Notes: generated from the letters alone by a model not told the origin. 64,000 bases of DNA from Candidatus Omnitrophota bacterium (GCA_015233675.1 JADFXH010000008.1:26003-90002), one strand, 5' to 3'; shown: positions 25,353 to 35,095, counted from the stretch's first letter. A program made the numbers and translations.

Positions 25353-25871
25353 CTAATTATACGCATTAATATTCAAATGTAAATTACTTTGTTCAATGAC
25401 CCTGTTTTTCCGACGATCTATGCTTTGGATCGCTTCAAATAATTGGTCTTGGGCAAGATGCGCATATCTCTGCGTCATTTTAGGTGAAGCATGACCCAGG
25501 AATTTTTGCACCACATACAAATCCACCCCGTTACGGACTAATTGAGAAGCGAATGTATGACGGAGATCATGAAATTTAAAATCTTTGATCCCCTCCTCTT
25601 CTAAAGCCTTATCAAAAGAAAAACGGATCGAGCGCAACTCGCGCTTTTTTTCAGGCCGCCAGAAGATATAGCTTATACCATCGCACCTTGGGAACCTCAA
25701 TAAGGTTTCTTTGAGAATAGGACTTAATGGAATGTGACGGGATTTGTTGGTCTTTGATAATGATTCATGGACATAAAAGATGTTATTATCAAAATCAACA
25801 TAATTACTATTGTTTTCCTGTTTCCATTTAAGCCGTATTATTGACCACTTTTGATACACCATAAACATCAC
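25353..25871 (-). pseudogene. tyrosine recombinase/phage integrase, 5'-truncated fragment (catalytic C-terminal part only)
   Basis: Contains HDLRHTFASQLVRNGVDLYVVQKFLGHASPKMTQRYAHL (the H-x-x-R ... Y catalytic box) and TNKSRHIPL. The N-terminal SAM-like domain and the first catalytic Arg region are missing. Homology begins about where the BON gene ends (25828). Confidence 0.8.
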
Positions 25872-26580
25872 TTGCTACCTTAGCGGCCATGTCTTTTGCC
25901 GCCCCGCTGGTGGCCTCACCAGTTAATGTTACTACCCCGTTAGTTGTTTCAACTCCTGTCTTAAAAGCGCTGGTTGAATGATGAGTAAAAAACGCCATCT
26001 TGACCTGTGCTGTGATGGACGCATCATCAATTTTATTATCCTTAGAGATTTCTGGCTTATTTACAACTTGCCTTATGGTCATTTCGTTTTTGACATCTTT
26101 GACGCCAGCGATGTCCTTGGCATATTCACCTGTCAGGTCTTTTTGGGCCTGGCTGTCTGCACGGCCTTTCAACGTAACGACCCCATCAGTAACACCAGCC
26201 TCAGTATTAACAGCGCTCACATTACGGTTGAAAAACAAGGCGCTTTTGACCTTCATACCAATCCACCCACCTGAATTCTTGGAAAGCTGTTGACCTTTGA
26301 CAGTCAATAGATTATCTACCCTTTTTACATCAGGCAGATTTGCCACGGTCTCTTGTGCCAATGCTTTGTGAGACTCTTCATTGACGCTGCCCGTTAATGT
26401 GACTATGCCATCCTTAGACTTGGTATTAATAGCATCCTTCTCAAGATGCGTCCTATAAACGTAGGATTACTTAGCGGAGGACTCAATACGATCATCCATA
26501 TCAGAAGAATGCACAGACGTATACGTGAACAACATCGCCGCCATAATTGCAAAAAATACACTCAAATAAATCCCCTTCAT
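25828..26580 (-). pseudogene. BON-domain (OsmY-like) periplasmic protein interrupted by an in-frame TAA
   Basis: The ATG at 26580 gives signal peptide MKGIYLSVFFAIMAAMLFTYTSVHS, then DDRIESSAK. A TAA follows at 26469-26467. The same frame then continues SYVYRTHLEKDAINTKSKDGIVTLTGSVNEESHKALAQETVANL into the 177-aa track ORF. Three BON repeats are present (VTLTG/VTLKG motifs). Confidence 0.8.
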
Positions 26581-26660: not shown

Positions 26661-27080
26661 TCATCTTATTCTCCCTTCAAAAGTCAGATTAATTAAATCA
26701 ACCAGTTCATTATCATTAAATGGTTTTTGTAAAAAACCCGCGGTACCTGCTTTTAAAGCTTGTTCCTTAAAGTCGCTATTTCTATCCGCCGTAATAATGA
26801 TTACCGGACGGTTTGCCCTTGTTTTTATAAGTATTTGCAATGCCTGCCATCCGTTTAATCCCGGCATATGAATGTCCATGATTAAACACCCCAAAGCACT
26901 ATTGGGCACAGTGCTAAAGAATTTCTCGGCGCAAGAGTAAGTCTCTACCGCAAAACCATAAGTCTCCAAAAGAAATTTAAGAGCACGCCGCACAGACTTA
27001 TCATCATCTACAATAAAAACTAACTTTTTGTCAAAAGACAATTCTTCACCTGGCTTTAATTTTAATTCCTCAATTTGCAT
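26661..27080 (-). CDS. stand-alone response-regulator receiver (CheY-like)
   Basis: 139 aa. Motifs VFIVDDD, LIMDIHMPGLNG (phospho-acceptor Asp) and FLQKPF. No output domain. Confidence 0.85.
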   Translation of the reverse strand: MQIEELKLKPGEELSFDKKLVFIVDDDKSVRRALKFLLETYGFAVETYSCAEKFFSTVPNSALGCLIMDIHMPGLNGWQALQILIKTRANRPVIIITADRNSDFKEQALKAGTAGFLQKPFNDNELVDLINLTFEGRIR

Positions 27081-27111
27081 AATGTTGTACTATAAACGGC
27101 CATAAAATTAA

Positions 27112-28711
27112 TCAATTGTACCGTGGTATAATAGGCCTATGGTTACGACGGGCTACCTGCGTTTTTGCTGATTGTAATCTTTCAAAAAATCCATTTTTAT
27201 TAAAATCTAAACTCCATTTTCTGATGATAATCCATCCCATAAAACGGATTAAATCGTTTCGCCAGTACCAGCACCATTTCTCCCACCCCAGTTTAATATT
27301 ATGCAAAAATAAGACTATCTCAGGGAATATTAATATATCCAACCCTATTTTAAAAAGAAAGCCGAACTGATAAAAGGACGCCATAATTCTTCTTTGCGCA
27401 CTCTGCATTTCCTCAGCGGTAAGCGGCGCGTCAGGTTCGAAAACCGGGAAATTTCCGTCATAATACTCCCATCCAACATCACAAATATCATAAATCCGGT
27501 TTTGCTTCTTAAGCCTCCGGCTTAATTGTGTTCCCGGTAAGGGGACCGGCAACAAAATTTGAATAGTATCAATGCGCGCTTTTCTAATAAATTTTTGATA
27601 ACGCTTGACCATTTCTTTTGCTGTCATATCAAAAAACTGACCATCTTCAATGGGATATCCAAAAATAAACATCCCATGCACTAAAAATCCAAATTTATGA
27701 AAAACTTTTGTGAAAGATAACATTTCTTCAGGATTGATATGTTTATTCATGGCATTTAATTCTTTGGCAATCGGGGATTCAAAACCAATACAAACCATAT
27801 TAATGCCTGCGGCGCATCGCTAAAAGAAGTTGAGGGTCCTTCGCCTTATCCAGCCTTATCTACGCCGTAAAATCAAGTCGTGTACCAATGCGTTTTTGGT
27901 AATTCCGAAGCTCATAGCAAAGCTGGACTGTCTCTGTACGATGCTGCCCAAAAAGGTCATCAATAATAAAAAAATGCCTCGCAGCCCTGGTTTCAACCAA
28001 AAGTCTGATCTGTTCAAGCAGCCGCTCAGGACAAGCCGCCCGAGGCTTCCCCTTGACGGTACAGAACTCGCACTCCATGCCGCATCCCCGGATACGTTCA
28101 ACCGGATAAACCTTCAGCCGGGCATATCTTACAAGAGAAAAATCCGGCAGAGGCAATTTGTCAAAATCAAGCAATGGTTCTCTCTCATGCATGCGGATAA
28201 ATTCTCCATTTCTTAAAAACGCAATGCCTTTCACTCCAAGTATTTCGCGTTTGCCCTCGATGGCTTCAAGAAGCTCTTGAATGGTCTCTTCACCTTCACC
28301 TATAACGATGTAGTCAATACCATGAGACAAGGCGTCCATAATATGATCCTCTACAAAATGCTGCCCGCCGGCAATTGTAACCACTCCCTTGTCTTTGTAA
28401 AATTGTGCCACCTTATAAAGACAAGGGATCGTGCTTGTTAACCCGCCATAAAATCCAACAACATCAGCAGGCCTTTGTTGTTGCAAAAACTCGTGGTCAG
28501 CCCCACAGTCCTTACTCCTGGGCCCATGCTGGCGGAGATTGTTTTCATCAATCACCTCAGCATCCCATCTTGCCATTTTGTTAACATTCGTGGCCACGTA
28601 AACCGGGCCTAAAGCTGTTGTGCAGGAGGCTATATTTGAATAAATATTAAATGCCGGGTAAACAGGCGCGATCATTCTAAATCTGTATCTTTTTTTTAAT
28701 GTTTCCAGCAT
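27112..28711 (-). pseudogene. B12-binding-domain radical SAM enzyme, disrupted (in-frame TAG plus frameshift)
   Basis: The N-terminal ORF (27860-28711) has a cobalamin-binding-like domain and the CGMECEFC (Cx3Cx2C) cluster. It ends at the TAG at 27860-27862. Read-through gives IRLDKAKDPQLLLAMR, then a +1 shift near 27805-27817 joins AGINMVCIGFESP of the second ORF (27112-27798). Confidence 0.78.
27115..27132. promoter_or_regulatory. 18-bp palindromic motif, site a: ATTGTACC GT GGTATAAT
   Basis: 8-2-8 inverted repeat with one mismatch. It lies 35 nt upstream of the receiver gene start (27080) and overlaps the last codons of the radical SAM pseudogene. Confidence 0.6.
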
Positions 28712-28887
28712 AATTTTCCCTCATCTTTAATCTGTAATTCTTTTTCTTTTCCAGCTTCTTTGCCTTTGGGCCAGACGTTCAATACATCATGAAGATAATC
28801 TTTATTTTTATCGTTACACTGATACCGGCATTCTAAACAACTATTCCCATGATTCAAACATCGTAAATGGTAGCCACATATATTCAT
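28696..28887 (-). CDS. small Cys-rich protein/peptide (63 aa) translationally coupled to the radical SAM gene
   Basis: The ATG at 28887 is preceded by AGAGGA 5 nt upstream. The stop overlaps the radical SAM start by 16 nt. The N-terminal pattern is C-x5-C-x6-C-x2-C-x3-C and the C-terminal half is Lys/Glu-rich. I recognise no homology. Confidence 0.4.
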   Translation of the reverse strand: MNICGYHLRCLNHGNSCLECRYQCNDKNKDYLHDVLNVWPKGKEAGKEKELQIKDEGKLCWKH

Positions 28888-29042
28888 GTATGTCCTCTTT
28901 TCATCAAACTACACTTTATCTACCCACATACAGAAAGGGCTAAAAGGTAGGTCTATTCTCATCTGAAGAGACTTTAAAACATAAATTCTCATAAGCCTGT
29001 CCTCCTTCAATTAACATTGTAGGAGCAGGAAAAATAGATTCA

Positions 29043-29060
29043 ATTGTACTTAGGTATAAC
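29043..29060. promoter_or_regulatory. 18-bp palindromic motif, site c: ATTGTACT TA GGTATAAC
   Basis: The most degenerate copy. It lies 156 nt upstream of the Cys-rich ORF/radical SAM unit and 8 nt downstream of the FixJ-type gene stop. Confidence 0.45.
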
Positions 29061-29067
29061 AGGATTA

Positions 29068-29694
29068 TCAGTCTAGGGAGGAAGTAATGCCCGCTTTCTG
29101 GGCGAAGTGGATGAGTTCTGTTACTGTTTTAGCCTGCATCTTTTGCATGACCCTGCCACGGTGCACTTTGATTGTCTGAAGAGCATTCCCCCGCTTCGAG
29201 GCAATTTGTTTATTCAACATGCCAAGAGCCACCAAACGAAAAACTTCCAGCTCTCTAGGGGAAAGTGTCTTAATATGCTGCTTGATCTTGTTTATTTCGG
29301 CTTGTTGTTTATTTTGAATTTTATTCTTGGCAATAGCACGCTCAATGGCATTAAGCAGCTTTTTCTCGGTAAATGGCTTAGGCAAGAAATCTATCGCCCC
29401 GGCCTGCACGGCTTTCACGCTCATGGGGATATTCCCATGTCCAGTGATAAAAACAATAGGAACGTTCACCTGTTGGAGAGCCATGGTCTCCTGAAGGGCA
29501 AGTCCGGAGATACCCGGCATACGGATATCCGAGACCAGGCATGAGGGCACTTTAGGGTGCTTAAAGCTCAAAAAATCTGCCGCACAAGGGAATGTTTCAA
29601 CTTTAAACCCATGTTGTTCCAACAATAGTTTCAAAGCCTTGCACACAGAAGCATCATCATCAACGATATAGATAATCTGCCCATGGTTGTTCAT
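29068..29694 (-). CDS. FixJ/NarL-family response regulator (REC + LuxR-type HTH)
   Basis: 208 aa. Motifs IYIVDDD, LVSDIRMPGISG and FLPKPF. C-terminal LSPRELEVFRLVALGMLNKQIASKRGNALQTIKVHR. The start overlaps the kinase stop (ATGA). Confidence 0.9.
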   Translation of the reverse strand: MNNHGQIIYIVDDDASVCKALKLLLEQHGFKVETFPCAADFLSFKHPKVPSCLVSDIRMPGISGLALQETMALQQVNVPIVFITGHGNIPMSVKAVQAGAIDFLPKPFTEKKLLNAIERAIAKNKIQNKQQAEINKIKQHIKTLSPRELEVFRLVALGMLNKQIASKRGNALQTIKVHRGRVMQKMQAKTVTELIHFAQKAGITSSLD

Positions 29695-30949
29695 ATCGAA
29701 TCCTTTATAACAGGAATAGTAAAATAAAAGGTTGCGCCGCGGTCAGGATTATTCTCAGCTTCCAGATGGCCGCCATGGGCTTCCACGATGGAACGGCTGA
29801 TGGAAAGCCCCATACCCAAACCATCCGGCTTACTCGTAAAAAAATGAGTGAATATTTTTTTCATATTCTCCACTGGAATACCGCATCCTGAATCCTTGAT
29901 CTGGACCATAATCGTCTGAGTATCTTTAAGAAATGACTTGATCAATAAGTCCCTGGAATCAGGACTCTCCTCCATCGCCTCTAAACTATTGCTGATAAGG
30001 TTCAAGATCACTTGCTGTAGTTGTATGCGATCACCCTGAATTATCGGGAGATTAGTATCCAACTCAAAATGAACAACTATATTCTTTGAAGTTATATGTG
30101 TCATTATAAGTGAACCCGTATCTCTGATAACTTTATTTATATCAAGCGGCTCGAAAGCAGGCTTGTTCTTTTTTAACAGTGCCCGCAACCGCCGGATAAC
30201 CTCAGTAGCCCTCTGATCATCATTAATAATGCTCTGCATGATTTCTTGCAGTTGAGGCTCTCTATCGTTTAAAATACGCTGGCCCGCTTGAGCATAAGAA
30301 AGAATAGCCGTCAAAGGCTGGCTGATTTCATGCGCTAAAGAAGAAACAAATTCCGCGAGTTTCCCCACTCTCGTCACATGCAAGAGCTCTTCGCGCTGTT
30401 CGGCAATTTTTGAATCCCGCAACTTGAGCAATGTGATATCTGTTTTAATCCCGACATAATGAGTGACCACTCCTTTATTATCCAGTATCGGGGCTATCCT
30501 CAGCAAATTCCAAAAACCATCACCATTCTTTTTATGGTTTAGCAGCTCCTCATGAAAAGATTCCCCTTGGAGTAAGGCTTCTTTTATTTTTTCAGCGATT
30601 TTTAAATTGCAATTAAATTTATTATACAAAAAATAACTTTTACCAATGACCTCACTTCTTGTATAACTGTATAAAAGGACGGGTTTGCGTAGATAATAGG
30701 GAAATCAGGCTTGACGGCATCTATAATGAAAATACCATCCAATGAGGATTCCAAGGCCTTAGACTGAAGATATATTTGTTCTTGAGCTCGTGTTTCTCTA
30801 ACCGCCCCTAATTGTTCCCGGACAACTCCTTGCTTTAATTGCCACTTTTTGACATTTAAATCCACCGATTGCCGGTAAACTTTCTCTTCCAATTTCTTAC
30901 CGATTGTTTTCTTTAATGACGGCCTTTTAATTATTTTTTTATTACCCAT
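29691..30949 (-). pseudogene. PAS-domain sensor histidine kinase (FixL-like), frameshifted inside the PAS domain
   Basis: The upstream ORF (30602-30949) ends in PAS start ALESSLDGIFIIDAVKPDFPIIYANPSFYT. The downstream frame continues YTRSEVIGKSYFL...NGDGFWNLLRIAPILD...VGIKTDIT, then HisKA (SLAHEISQPL) and HATPase (DSGCGI, GMGLSI). The frame break lies at ~30655-30680, at a TATACA-GT-TATACA direct repeat. Confidence 0.8.
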
Positions 30950-30975
30950 AATTTTTTGTATTTAGAAATCTCTTT

Positions 30976-31338
30976 TTAATTTTTTGATGTTGCATTAATA
31001 AGGCCAACTAAGCTCTGGCCATTAACAGGTTTTTGTAAAAAACCCACCGCCCCAACATTAAAAGCGCGCAGGGCAGCGTCTTCTTGTTTCTCAGCAGAAA
31101 TAAAAATAACAGGGCGTTTCGAACCGGAGTCAAGGATCCTTTTCTGGGTTTCCCAACCGTCCATTCCTGGCATATGGATATCAAGGAGCAAAGAACCCTG
31201 CTCATCTTGAGCTACGTTTTCAAAGAAACTATGTGCTGAATTAAACGTTTTTACATCAAAACCAAAGGTCATTAAAAGGATTCTAAGCGCGCGGCATACC
31301 GATTCGTCATCATCGACAATAAAAATCTTAGTTGGCAT
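30976..31338 (-). CDS. stand-alone response-regulator receiver (CheY-like)
   Basis: MPTKIFIVDDDESV from the ATG at 31338, with GGAGAA upstream. Motifs LLLDIHMPGMDG and FLQKPV. The track start at 31386 looks like an over-extension. Confidence 0.85.
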   Translation of the reverse strand: MPTKIFIVDDDESVCRALRILLMTFGFDVKTFNSAHSFFENVAQDEQGSLLLDIHMPGMDGWETQKRILDSGSKRPVIFISAEKQEDAALRAFNVGAVGFLQKPVNGQSLVGLINATSKN

Positions 31339-31445
31339 TTTTCTCCTTACACTAATATTATGTATCAGTTTAAAAGCAAAGGACAATCAAAGAACTGGAT
31401 AAAAATTCATTTGTTATTATTATGCTATGAAGTACAAAGAAAGCA

Positions 31446-31463
31446 ATTATACCAAGGTATAAT
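31446..31463. promoter_or_regulatory. 18-bp palindromic motif, site d: ATTATACC AA GGTATAAT
   Basis: Perfect 8-2-8 palindrome, 108 nt upstream of the receiver-kinase-FixJ operon start (31338). Confidence 0.6.
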
Positions 31464-31550
31464 AAGCTTTTAACGCCTCCATCCAGGGTTATAATCCCTA
31501 TCTAAGTTTTCTTAATTTTATCATAATTTTTAACCCTGCTTAACAAATTT

Positions 31551-32576
31551 TTATGCCCCACATTTATAACAGACTTCGTTGGCGAGCCTCTGGTGCGCAA
31601 AAAAATCCCTGATATTATGCAGTGAAGTGACAGCGATGCTTTGCAGTGCTTCTTGAGTAAAAAAACCCTGATGAGAAGTAACCATGACATTATTAAAGGA
31701 CAACAGGCGGGCTAAAACATCATCCGTAATAACTTTATTCGAGAAATCCTCATAAAAATAATCACTTTCTTCTTCATAAACATCTAACCCCGCGAAACCG
31801 ACTTTCCCGGTTTTTAACCCCTCAATTAAAGCTTTCGAATCAATGAGCATCCCTCGTCCTGTGTTAATGATCATGATGCCGGATTTCATTTTAGCTATGG
31901 ATTTCTTATCGATCAGGTGATAACTGTCTTTTGTTAGGGGACAATGAAGTGAGATAATATCAGATTCACGATAGATGGTGTTAAGGTCCACATACTCAAA
32001 CCCGGCATTTTTTTGAAATTCCTTGTCTGGCAGAACATCATAAGCTAAAACCCTTATTTTAAAACCTTTTAAGATATTAATTGCAACCTTTCCTATTTTT
32101 CCGGTTCCAATAATACCAGCAGTCTTCCCATGCATGTCAAAACCCAACAACCCATTGAGCGTGAAATTATTATCACGGGTCCGGTAATAGGCGCGATGGA
32201 CTTTGCGATTCAAAACCAGCATCAGCCCAACGGCATGCTCGGCTACAGCATAGGGAGAGTATGCCGGAACCCGGACAACAGGTATTCTTTTAAAGGCCGC
32301 CTTCAAGTCAATATTATTATATCCGGCCGCGCGGACGGCGATAAGCACGACACCGTTGTGCTCAAGGATATCAATCACATCACGATTGACCACATCATTG
32401 ACAAAAACGCATACAACTTTAAATCCTTGAGTTAAAGGAGCTGTTTCAGGCGTAAGGTGCCCTTTAAAATATGTGATCTTAAAATTAAAATCCCTATTTG
32501 CGATGTCAAAAACATTGGTGTCATATGCTTTAGCATCAAAGAACGCAACCTTGATAACATCTGACTTAATATCCAT
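31551..32576 (-). CDS. ldhA: D-lactate / D-2-hydroxyacid dehydrogenase
   Basis: 341 aa. NAD motif GIIGTGKIGKVA and catalytic INTGRG...VTSHQGFFT, typical of the D-isomer-specific 2-hydroxyacid dehydrogenase family. Confidence 0.8.
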   Translation of the reverse strand: MDIKSDVIKVAFFDAKAYDTNVFDIANRDFNFKITYFKGHLTPETAPLTQGFKVVCVFVNDVVNRDVIDILEHNGVVLIAVRAAGYNNIDLKAAFKRIPVVRVPAYSPYAVAEHAVGLMLVLNRKVHRAYYRTRDNNFTLNGLLGFDMHGKTAGIIGTGKIGKVAINILKGFKIRVLAYDVLPDKEFQKNAGFEYVDLNTIYRESDIISLHCPLTKDSYHLIDKKSIAKMKSGIMIINTGRGMLIDSKALIEGLKTGKVGFAGLDVYEEESDYFYEDFSNKVITDDVLARLLSFNNVMVTSHQGFFTQEALQSIAVTSLHNIRDFFAHQRLANEVCYKCGA

Positions 32577-32852
32577 ATTGAGCTGTCCTTCACAGCTGTC
32601 TGAATGTTTAATCTATCGTCATGCTGAGCAAAGCGAAATTAGTCCTTTCAGCTCTTCTTTTTTTTCTTTAACCGCTTCATTCAAGAATTCAAAGGCTTCA
32701 CTAATCTTTGCATTCCTCGTTCTACCTTGATTTTCTGTTGTCATATGATCTTCTCCTTTAAATTACGTCATGGTGTTTAGTCATCCCCTCCCTTTTTTTA
32801 TCACTACGTTTACTTTCGTTAACTGCATAGAAGCATATTAAGATCTCCCCAC

Positions 32853-34343
32853 TCATAAACGGCCGGAGGACTGCGTAATGCTTCTAAGCTTTAAAGTGAG
32901 TTCCTTTGACAATGCCCCATCCTTAAGACGCCATCGCCAGTTTCCTTTAACAGTTCCGGGAAAATTCATTCGTTCCCCGGAGCCCAAGCCCAGAAGGTCT
33001 TGCGCGGGAATGATGACCGTATTGGCTTCAGATGCAAAGGCCTCACGGATCATCGCCCATACAATCCCCTGACTGTTTACACCCAACTTTCTTTGCAAGG
33101 CATCGCGTTGCGAACTTGGCAAATGCTGATACCAACCTTCCGTTGTGTCATTATCATGAGTTGCGGTATAAACCACTGAATTCACTAAATGCTGTTTAGA
33201 AGTAACAAAATTAGTTTCAAGGTCTGATCCAAACTGGAACTGAAGAACCTGTGTTCCCGGGATCTGAAACTGGTCCATTAAAGCAACTACTTCGGGCGTT
33301 CTGACACCGAGATCATCGGCTATCAAAAGTATAGGCCCAAGGTCTTTGTAGACGGCTTCAAAAAAAGAAGCTCCGGGGCCAGGTTGATACTGCCCATTAA
33401 CGGCCGTCTTAGCTTGTACAGGTATTTCATAAAAATGGTCAAAACCTATAAAATGATCCAGCCGATTAAAATCGAAGCGTCCAAAGGCCATACGCAGGCG
33501 TTGGATCCACCAGCTATAGTTCTGACGGCCAAGTGCCTCCCAGCGATATACGGGAGCCCCCCATACCTGACCTGTTTTAGAAAAATAATCAGGAGGAACT
33601 CCCGCAACCACTGTAGGTTTTCCATCGGCATCTAGCTTGAAGAGCCCTGGATGAGCCCAGACATCAGCGCTTTGATGCGACACGAAATGAGGGACATCTC
33701 CAATCAACTTAACTGCTTTGCTTGTACAATAATCCTTTAATCCTTTAAACTGCACTGAGAACTGCCATTGGACAAACTTATGGTAACGCATGTCATCGGC
33801 AAAATATTTTTGTGCGCGAATGATTACCTCAGGCCTACGTGCTCGCAGTTCTTGGTCCCATTGTGTCCAATCTGAAGTGCCTTCTTTCTCCTGGATTGCT
33901 AAAAACAATGAAAAATCCTCTAGCCAATAAGCCTCCTCGCGCATAAAGTTGTCCAGCCTAGATTCCCTGTCTACATTTTTGTTCTTTTCAAAATTTTCAA
34001 ATGCTTTTCTTAACAGCCTGAGTCTAAAGCCTTGTGCCGCTAAATAATTAACCTGTCCATTGCTGGAAGGAACATAGAACTCAATATCTGATTTGTCTAG
34101 AAACCCTTGCTCTACCAAACGATCAGGACTGACCAAAAGCGGATTACCCCCAAAAGCAGACATTGACTGGTAAGGCGAATCATCTTGTCCTGTGGGGCCG
34201 ATGGGCAGCATCTGCCACCAACGCTGTCCACTCTCATACAAAAAATCCACAAACTCGATCGCTCCTCGTCCAAGATCCCCTATGGAGTAAGGATTAGAAA
34301 CAGATGTTAAATGAAGAAGTATCCCGGAGGCTCGTTGATTCAT
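32853..34343 (-). CDS. malQ: 4-alpha-glucanotransferase (amylomaltase, GH77)
   Basis: 496 aa. Motifs RASGILLHLTS, LIGDVPHFV, RLDHFIGF, IADDLG and YTATHDNDT. Confidence 0.92.
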   Translation of the reverse strand: MNQRASGILLHLTSVSNPYSIGDLGRGAIEFVDFLYESGQRWWQMLPIGPTGQDDSPYQSMSAFGGNPLLVSPDRLVEQGFLDKSDIEFYVPSSNGQVNYLAAQGFRLRLLRKAFENFEKNKNVDRESRLDNFMREEAYWLEDFSLFLAIQEKEGTSDWTQWDQELRARRPEVIIRAQKYFADDMRYHKFVQWQFSVQFKGLKDYCTSKAVKLIGDVPHFVSHQSADVWAHPGLFKLDADGKPTVVAGVPPDYFSKTGQVWGAPVYRWEALGRQNYSWWIQRLRMAFGRFDFNRLDHFIGFDHFYEIPVQAKTAVNGQYQPGPGASFFEAVYKDLGPILLIADDLGVRTPEVVALMDQFQIPGTQVLQFQFGSDLETNFVTSKQHLVNSVVYTATHDNDTTEGWYQHLPSSQRDALQRKLGVNSQGIVWAMIREAFASEANTVIIPAQDLLGLGSGERMNFPGTVKGNWRWRLKDGALSKELTLKLRSITQSSGRL

Positions 34344-34380
34344 GCTAAAGATCCTCTGAGGAATTCAATGTAAAATCACC

Positions 34381-34569
34381 TCACCTAATATGTACAGTGT
34401 TGATGTCACCTAATATGCCAAATGACTGCAATAACCAAACGCAGACAACAATTAGCACGAGAACATTCAAAACTTGCTTAATTTTACCATCCATAGGTAT
34501 GTAGGTATTAACCAGCCATAGGATCACACCAACTACAACTAAAGTCACAACAATAGAAAGTAATGACAT
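34381..34569 (-). CDS. small two-helix membrane protein (Thivi_2564-like family)
   Basis: 62 aa. MSLLSIVVTLVVVGVILWLVNTYIPMDGKIKQVLN... matches my memory of this small-protein family. GGAGGG lies upstream. Confidence 0.55.
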   Translation of the reverse strand: MSLLSIVVTLVVVGVILWLVNTYIPMDGKIKQVLNVLVLIVVCVWLLQSFGILGDINTVHIR

Positions 34570-34690
34570 TTTCCTACCCTCCTTTCCTATTCTTATTGCA
34601 TCTCAAAGGCCCCTGCCTTTCGGTTTCCATCACTTACACTGGTATACGGCCAGTGTCTTTTTCCCGTTGACAGAGCCCCTGGAAAACTAC

Positions 34691-34954
34691 CTATACGTGC
34701 CTTACAACAAAGCGCGTCAGGCCTACAAAGACCACCGCACCAAGAATCGCCAACAGGAACATACCAAGCGAACTTCCGACAGATAGTCCAAGCGCACTGG
34801 CTATCCACCCGCCAAGCATAGCTCCAACTATACCGATGACTATGTCTGCAGGAATCCCATATCCCCTGCCTCTGGTGATAAGCCCTGCTACCCACCCGAT
34901 CACACCGCCAATAAAAAGAAACCATATCCAATACCCCACTGTATTATGTTCCAT
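34691..34954 (-). CDS. GlsB/YeaQ/YmgE-family stress-response membrane protein
   Basis: 87 aa. Motifs GWVAGLITRGRGYGIPADIVIGIVGAMLGGWI, the transglycosylase-associated-protein family pattern. Confidence 0.85.
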   Translation of the reverse strand: MEHNTVGYWIWFLFIGGVIGWVAGLITRGRGYGIPADIVIGIVGAMLGGWIASALGLSVGSSLGMFLLAILGAVVFVGLTRFVVRHV

Positions 34955-35077
34955 AATCCTTCCCTCCCTTTTAATATTACCCTTATTGCTTTTGTTTAAA
35001 ACTCACTGCACTCAAACAACTACTTATGTTTCATCTGGCTTGATATTTATAGTATGGGATTGTGTAAAATATAATCA

Positions 35078-35095
35078 ATTGTACCGAGGTATAAT
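35078..35095. promoter_or_regulatory. 18-bp palindromic motif, site b: ATTGTACC GA GGTATAAT
   Basis: 124 nt upstream of the YeaQ/GlsB-family gene start (34954). Shares the flanking TCA with sites a and c. Confidence 0.55.

Follow-up and report, generated by a model that had tools for sequence, protein, structure and literature searches.

A recurrent palindrome in a Candidatus Omnitrophota contig is part of a predicted composite promoter that points to a two-component, general-stress-like regulon

The stretch of DNA analyzed here, 64,000 nucleotides (64 kb) from a Candidatus Omnitrophota bacterium (GCA_015233675.1, JADFXH010000008.1:26003-90002; hereafter, the window), carries four copies of an 18-bp palindrome, each upstream of a transcription unit on the minus strand. 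Each palindrome is almost certainly a transcription factor site that makes up the upstream half of a conserved composite promoter of about 45 bp. The explanation that best accounts for the data, to which we assign a probability of roughly 0.75, is that a dimer of a locally encoded FixJ/StyR-type response regulator would activate a stress-like regulon from these composite promoters. Comparative sequence evidence makes the palindrome well supported as a genuine lineage-wide cis-regulatory element, and the regulon is a computational prediction. Overall, it looks like a two-component-driven, general-stress-like regulon that is conserved across Omnitrophota and some neighboring lineages.

The initial annotation of this DNA had described four 18-bp palindromes upstream of minus-strand units, the third of them perfect, and that description proved exact. 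The pattern ATTRTACNNNGGTATAAY matches without mismatch at 27115-27132 (site 1), 29043-29060 (site 2), 31446-31463 (site 3), and 35078-35095 (site 4), and it has no match in 100 dinucleotide-preserving shuffles. On the minus strand, site 1 reads ATTATACCACGGTACAAT and is a predicted regulator-binding palindrome; site 2 reads GTTATACCTAAGTACAAT and lies 7 nt past the stop codon of the regulator gene; site 3 reads ATTATACCTTGGTATAAT and falls into a fully symmetric, putatively autoregulatory subclass; and site 4 reads ATTATACCTCGGTACAAT. Because site 3 is a perfect palindrome, it is matched on both strands. In gene direction, the sites read (A/G)TTATACC-NN-(G/A)GTA(C/T)AAT and then TG, or ATTATACC-NN-GGTAYAAT-TG, and the motif is thus not purely symmetric. 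A hexamer resembling a -10 element is found 20-23 nt beyond the dyad at all four sites. The same annotation had seen no clean copy in the housekeeping or glycan blocks, and this observation holds across the whole 64-kb window: the half-site GGTAYAAT is absent outside the four sites, no extra copy of the dyad appears at 3 mismatches, and a profile hidden Markov model (HMM) built from the sites of other genomes only returns exactly the four sites, all on the minus strand, with E-values of 2.6e-8 to 1.8e-5 (4e-7, 1.8e-5, 1.1e-5, and 2.6e-8 for sites 1 to 4, respectively). The next-best match to the profile in the window, the opposite strand of site 3, has E = 0.1.

The regulator encoded at 29068-29694 is 100% identical to a protein labeled Candidatus Omnitrophica at NCBI and has thousands of close homologs. 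Exact-protein look-ups of this regulator and of the 4-alpha-glucanotransferase encoded at 32853-34343 matched no contig, and orthologous loci were therefore reached through homologs. Loci were fetched around regulator homologs with 77-84% identity, four of which are non-redundant (L001, L003, L006, and L007). These four contain 13 further sites at no more than 2 mismatches (2-5 per locus), and all 13 are co-oriented with genes and continue into TG; the dyad is followed by TGATTnnATTTT, about 10 nt, and then cTAnAAT. Since the loci were found through the protein and not through the motif, they provide independent evidence for the dyad, the trailing TG, and the downstream hexamer.

A scan of species-representative genomes with TTATACCNNGGTAYAATTG yielded at least 118 blocks, which were retrieved at 8 kb each. 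Among the matches listed, about three quarters of the blocks come from Omnitrophota-type metagenome-assembled genomes (MAGs), although such proportions are indicative only, and the composite motif is present in dozens of these MAGs. We designate as Omnitrophota-type those genomes that are labeled Omnitrophota, or that are labeled "uncultured Planctomycetales" and are MAGs of the same lineage; the 84%-identical regulator is itself encoded on a contig with the latter label. When the scan was relaxed, 717 kb gave 133 composite sites, whereas five shuffled copies together gave 1 (an expectation of about 0.2). Most sites are intergenic, every one points the same way as the gene downstream of it, and 13% of site centers fall inside a stop-to-stop open reading frame (ORF) of at least 150 amino acids (aa), compared with 81% of random positions. 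The motif thus shows an upstream bias and not a uniform density in coding DNA, and it is conserved in orthologous intergenic regions, recurring in many genomes both in regulator loci and in blocks found through the motif; on both counts, the proposal of an operator put forward in the initial annotation stands. A repetitive extragenic palindrome (REP), a miniature inverted-repeat transposable element (MITE), or another mobile element was rejected as an identity for the motif, since the flanks are unconserved, the orientation follows the downstream gene, and the copies are mostly intergenic.

Alignment of the sites in gene direction reveals a common layout in which the dyad RTTATACC-NN-GGTAYAAT is followed by a -35-like TTGATT, a spacer of 16-17 bp, and a -10 hexamer with the sequence cTAnAAT. 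The first T of TTGATT is the last T of the dyad, a one-base overlap. TTGATT and TAnAAT separated by 16-17 bp form a canonical housekeeping (sigma-70-type) promoter, defined as TTGnnn and TAnnnT at 16-18 bp. Among the matches listed, made non-redundant, TAnnnT stands exactly 21-22 nt past the dyad in 81 of 96 Omnitrophota-type sites versus 8 of 44 sites from other taxa, and the stricter TAnAAT does so in 69/96 versus 2/44. In the same 96 sites, positions that the search pattern left free (A21, T22, T23, and T27) carry 0.8-1.3 bits and the -10 block carries 0.7-1.1 bits, compared with about 0 bits over the 20 positions 5' of the dyad (-19 to 0). As judged from the conserved -35 and -10, the dyad would span about -52 to -35 with its center at -42.5 or -43.5. 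Since the -35/-10 pair is conserved downstream at a fixed spacing, the dyad is therefore placed near -43, which is an activator-site position. Two further features were conserved in all Omnitrophota-type loci: a T-rich stretch, c.aTTt, inside the -35/-10 spacer at positions 24-30 from the dyad start, in which T27 reaches 1.2 bits, and one or two C residues directly before the -10 (tcCTAnAAT).

Each of the four window sites can be assigned a predicted core promoter on the minus strand. That of site 1 (27089-27115), read from the sequence on the layout of the aligned sites, consists of TTGATT (27110-27115), 15 nt, and TATAGT (27089-27094), with a spacer below the 16-17 norm. That of site 2 (29016-29043), which was independently listed by a sigma-70 consensus scan, consists of TTGAAT, 16 nt, and TACAAT. 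Those of site 3 (31419-31446; TTGCTT, 16 nt, CATAAT) and site 4 (35049-35078; TTGATT, 17-18 nt, then CATACT or TACTAT) were read from the sequence. At site 3, the sigma-70 scan gives TTAAAA-16-TGGTATAAT as an alternative, which would overlap with the palindrome itself.

The FixJ-type regulator at 29068-29694 had been named as the possible binder of the palindrome when the window was first annotated, and its gene linkage and similarity to StyR make it by far the best candidate; we consider it very probable that this protein binds the dyad. It scores 97 bits for Response_reg and 58 bits for GerE in Pfam, and it is the only GerE-type protein encoded in the 64-kb window. In all 25 non-redundant orthologous loci (59-100% identity), a site on the same strand lies between -6 and +110 nt from the stop codon of the regulator gene, and in 13 of the 25 a second site lies upstream of the kinase operon. 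Orthologs of the regulator are also encoded in 21 of the 8-kb blocks that were found through the motif only, including blocks whose MAGs are labeled Firestonebacteria, UBP3, and "Clostridia", and, among the matches listed, in none of the blocks with chance matches from other taxa.

The closest solved structure to the regulator is StyR (1yio), with 46% identity, followed by FixJ (5xso), and the recognition-helix stretch T(I/V)KVHR is common to the regulator and StyR. Literature searches did not find the sequences of the STY and TodT boxes, and two TodT papers print no box; the STY box was read directly from the styR-styA spacer of plasmid pSTY of Pseudomonas sp. VLB120. This StyR box, ATAAACCATGGTTTAT (ATAAACC-AT-GGTTTAT), lies 98 nt past the styR stop codon, has a -10-like hexamer 20 nt downstream, and shares 5 of 7 half-site positions with the present dyad, including ACC-N2-GGT. 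The consensus of NarL sites is TACYYMT-N2-AKRRGTA. The half-site TTATACC has its TAC at the inner side, by the spacer, and not at the outer end, and we therefore rejected membership in the NarL 7-2-7 class. The dyad does suit a dimer, but the initial comparison to the NarL inverted repeats with a 2-bp spacer is loose, and the StyR box is the closer relative. We likewise rejected an assignment as a FixJ ortholog: the FixJ model (NF006900) is the best NCBIfam match to the regulator, but the score of 200.6 bits falls short of the 255 cut-off, and because this equivalog threshold is not reached, the regulator is not a FixJ ortholog.

To define the predicted targets, the nearest downstream ORF was collected for the 133 sites (130 had one), and these ORFs were clustered. 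Stand-alone receivers form the largest class (24 sites in 23 loci). Further products that recur or stand out are DUF5670, a collagen-repeat/OmpA lipoprotein, a PLDc_N-type small membrane protein, DUF1328, CsbD, OsmC, and ferritin, and the gene tables of the regulator loci include Transgly_assoc, BON, DUF3185, VIT1, GGDEF, and B12 radical S-adenosylmethionine (SAM) genes. This gene set resembles the sigma-S and sigma-B general stress regulons.

The operators fall into subclasses that track the target. Of 9 sites before the receiver-kinase-regulator operon, 8 have full symmetry (GGTATAAT), and the -10 hexamers of this group are weaker; of 19 sites before stand-alone receivers, 17 read GGTACAAT and the other 2 are fully symmetric (Fisher p = 1.2e-4 for the difference in symmetry). 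The symmetric operon subclass has TA or TT as its spacer and includes window site 31446-31463, L099:694, L116:689, L064, L011, L105, and L113. A graded operator affinity combined with positive autoregulation would explain these subclasses. Autoregulation had been suggested in the initial annotation and is plausible, as a site before the receiver-kinase-regulator operon recurs in related genomes.

From these data, we propose the following mechanism. A dimer of the regulator would bind the dyad, as suggested by the genetic linkage and the similarity to the StyR box, and the adjacent cytoplasmic histidine kinase with a LOV-like PAS domain would phosphorylate the regulator, as the operon structure suggests. 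From its predicted position at about -43, the dimer would then help the housekeeping RNA polymerase to start transcription, by analogy to phosphorylated StyR, which activates from the STY2 site at about -40 (PMC2442086), and to LuxR, whose lux box is centered at -42.5 (PMC3376562). The targets would include stand-alone receivers; small membrane and stress proteins of the families Transgly_assoc, BON, DUF1328, DUF5670, PLDc_N, CsbD, OsmC, and ferritin; the Cys-rich ORF with the B12 radical SAM gene; and the regulator's own operon. The association of the motif with these genes is a direct observation, from which we infer that the genes are co-regulated.

Several points weigh against a regulon activated in this way. 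By E. coli terms, TTGATT and TAnAAT at 16-17 bp already form a fair promoter, and the regulator could occlude the -35 and so act as a repressor instead. In the window, the -35/-10 spacers are irregular (15, 16, 16, and 17-18 nt), and the -35 of site 3 (TTGCTT) is weak. Since the scan pattern itself fixed TTATACC, GGTAYAAT, and TTG, the 96 sites agree at those positions by construction, and their independent support comes only from the 17 sites that were found via the regulator or the window. The downstream ORFs were called only roughly, and for several of the "stress" families there is one site each. Finally, a frameshift interrupts the kinase gene in the window; if this is not an assembly error, the system may be inactive in this genome.

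The first of these points leads to the strongest competing explanation, in which the same regulator acts at the same site as a repressor, blocking sigma region 4 or alpha from -52 to -35 until a signal relieves the block. Core elements near consensus would suit such a repressor, with TTG conserved and TAnAAT in 69 of the 96 sites listed, as would the one-base overlap of the dyad with the -35 hexamer. StyR, too, is able to repress, doing so from additional sites (PMC2442086). Operators usually cover -35 to +10, however, whereas a center near -43 is the classic activator position; the operon subclass pairs the most symmetric dyad with the weakest -10, which suits dependence on an activator; and stress genes are typically induced, not constitutive. 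Thus, repression is unlikely, and the regulator probably activates rather than represses.

Less likely still is the suggestion that another transcription factor, encoded elsewhere in the genome, binds the dyad, or that an alternative sigma factor uses the 45-bp unit as its promoter, with the regulator operon being linked to the sites only as one of the targets. The site at 11219 in L003 does precede a small XRE-type helix-turn-helix gene, but no other DNA-binding gene recurs in the fetched regulator loci, and none of the 25 regulator genes has its stop codon more than 110 nt from a site. The ACC-N2-GGT core shared with the StyR box and the conserved recognition helix also argue for the regulator itself. 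As for a sigma promoter, the GerE helix-turn-helix is related to sigma region 4 and gives a weak Sigma70_r4_2 match; nevertheless, dyad symmetry suits a dimeric factor and not the -35 element of a sigma factor, and the -10 is of the housekeeping type.

The idea from the initial annotation that the half-site hexamers TACAAT/TATAAT are the functional -10, such that the operator lies on the promoter, can be dismissed as highly improbable, because, good -10 hexamers though they are, this layout fits only site 3, by chance, through the alternative promoter listed there, every position 5' of the dyad carries about 0 bits and no conserved -35 is seen there, the conserved -35/-10 pair lies 3' instead, and the TG of an extended -10 (TGn) is present inside the dyad only when the second spacer base is T, for which reason we also rejected an extended -10 as a general feature.

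The partner kinase (29691-30949, minus strand) is a natural module that carries a LOV-like PAS domain and, C-terminal to it, HisKA and HATPase domains. It has no membrane segment, and its core resembles FixL. Among solved structures, the kinase is most similar to YF1 (4gcz), an engineered fusion of LOV and FixL, and its PAS domain has matches to numerous LOV domains. In three orthologs, G(Q/K)NYF..YG stands in place of the flavin-binding motif GRNCRFLQG, and Lys occupies the position of YtvA Q123. A true LOV photoreceptor was rejected, since the adduct-forming Cys and the flavin-contacting Arg and Gln of the motif are missing despite strong sequence similarity to LOV, and the kinase is thus probably a LOV-derived sensor with a different ligand. 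Orthologs of the kinase are intact at 416-424 aa (e.g., L001:5271-6545, L003:651-1922, and L007:8750-10000), and the window copy is split inside the PAS domain by a frameshift near 30660. A short deletion of a length not divisible by three, located between two TATACA repeats, seems to have caused the break. This split and that of the radical SAM gene described below are either pseudogenes or assembly errors.

Every gene neighboring the sites is on the minus strand, and domains were assigned by Pfam. The unit at site 1 begins with a stand-alone receiver (26661-27080), a member of the commonest target class across genomes. A 52-aa ORF and a BON-domain (OsmY-like) gene follow within 25828-26561 (BON, 25828-26361) and are probably in one unit with the receiver; the order receiver, small gene, BON is also present in L003. 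A truncated phage-integrase-family ORF of 172 aa (25353-25871, minus strand) overlaps the 3' side of the BON gene and may be a trace of an earlier integration or rearrangement at the border of the regulon cluster.

The unit at site 2 (27112-28990), delineated by ORF reading and Pfam, comprises a 27-aa ORF, a Cys-rich ORF, and a gene for a B12-binding radical SAM protein. The 27-aa ORF (MRIYVLKSLQMRIDLPFSPFCMWVDKV; 28907-28990) has a GGAGG Shine-Dalgarno sequence and lies between site 2 and the Cys-rich ORF, which encodes 63 aa (28696-28887) and precedes the radical SAM gene (27112-28711). The latter is intact at 510-538 aa in its orthologs and is split into two ORFs in the window, with the break at 27798-27860. 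A 49-aa homolog of the Cys-rich ORF is present in L007 and L008. The two small ORFs and the radical SAM gene could be a small peptide-modification cluster under one promoter.

At site 3, the receiver-kinase-regulator operon begins with a stand-alone receiver (30976-31338), which precedes the kinase and the gene of the proposed binder, whose product is a receiver domain joined to a GerE helix-turn-helix (29068-29694). The unit at site 4 (34381-34954) consists of a Transgly_assoc (GlsB/YeaQ-type) gene (34691-34954) and a gene for a 62-aa membrane protein (34381-34569).

Beyond the Omnitrophota-type genomes, where the motif is matched in Bacteroidota, Lysinibacillus, archaea, and others, neither the downstream promoter nor the regulator is present, and these matches were set aside as chance or unrelated. 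In Lysinibacillus, the match is a perfect 22-bp palindrome, CAATTATACCTCGGTATAATTG, that occurs at two different loci (L067:3374-3395, L074:7368-7389, and L123:2759-2780), with one copy 3' of an HU-like gene. It has neither a regulator ortholog nor the promoter signature, so it is apparently an unrelated element with a convergent sequence. The composite promoter and two-component orthologs do occur together in blocks labeled Clostridia (L011, a binchicken MAG), Endomicrobiales (L065, which shows the kinase and receiver only), Firestonebacteria (L078), and UBP3 (L104). Either the system reaches beyond Omnitrophota or these contigs are mislabeled or misbinned.

A broader interpretation, which we offer tentatively as somewhat less than an even bet, is that Omnitrophota and some neighboring candidate lineages run their general stress response through one two-component system and not through a dedicated sigma factor. 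A kinase with a degenerate LOV-type PAS domain and a StyR-like regulator would act at the 45-bp promoter. If so, the stand-alone receivers, as the commonest targets, might provide feedback or branching, and the more symmetric and presumably higher-affinity operator of the operon would lead to graded, self-amplifying induction. Omnitrophota are almost entirely uncultured, and literature searches on Omnitrophota promoters or stress regulons found no relevant paper. The 45-bp signature could be used to annotate a stress regulon in hundreds of MAGs, supplies a regulator-DNA pair that is testable in heterologous assays, and would aid the reading of groundwater and sediment metatranscriptomes. The mechanism as such, in which a dimeric response regulator would act from about -43 of a housekeeping promoter, is a textbook one and is not new.

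Among known systems, the closest in kind is StyS/StyR with the STY2 box of Pseudomonas styA, to which the TodS/TodT boxes are related. The regulators belong to the same FixJ subfamily (46% identity), and both dyads have an ACC-N2-GGT core (ATAAACC-AT-GGTTTAT in StyR and TTATACC-NN-GGTATAA here). In both systems, a site lies in the intergenic region past the regulator gene, about 20 nt before a -10-like hexamer. The phosphorylated StyR dimer activates from about -40 (PMC2442086), and the corresponding position here is a predicted one, with the dyad 2-3 bp further upstream and abutting the conserved TTG. StyR acts with IHF and two auxiliary sites on a single catabolic operon, whereas the regulon described here is dispersed, each genome having at least 4-6 exact-match sites. 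The large kinase StyS is of the double-sensor type; the one here has a single LOV-like PAS domain. The targets are unrelated as well, being styrene catabolism for StyR and stress and envelope proteins here.

The LuxR and TraR systems likewise combine a GerE/LuxR-type domain with an 18-20 bp inverted repeat, the lux or tra box, that lies near -42.5 and abuts the -35 (PMC3376562). They differ in that activation is by acyl-homoserine lactone and not by phosphorylation, and the box sequences are unrelated. FixL/FixJ resembles the present system in that the FixJ model is the best NCBIfam match to the regulator, albeit below its cut-off, the kinase core is FixL-like, and 5xso is the second-best structure. 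In contrast to FixL, the sensor is LOV-like and not a heme-PAS domain, and the targets are not nif or fix genes. DosR/DevR of Mycobacterium is similar in being a NarL/FixJ-family regulator with a roughly 20-bp palindrome by the -35 of dispersed stress and dormancy genes and with positive autoregulation; it differs in its motif, which is of the GGGACT-N-AGTCCC type, in its GAF-heme sensor kinases, and in its phylum and gene set. In content, the predicted regulon overlaps the sigma-S, sigma-B, and EcfG regulons through CsbD, OsmC, BON/OsmY, GlsB/YeaQ-type, DUF1328/YtjA-type, and ferritin-type proteins. Unlike those alternative-sigma stress regulons, control here is apparently exerted by a two-component activator at housekeeping-type promoters and not by a dedicated sigma factor.

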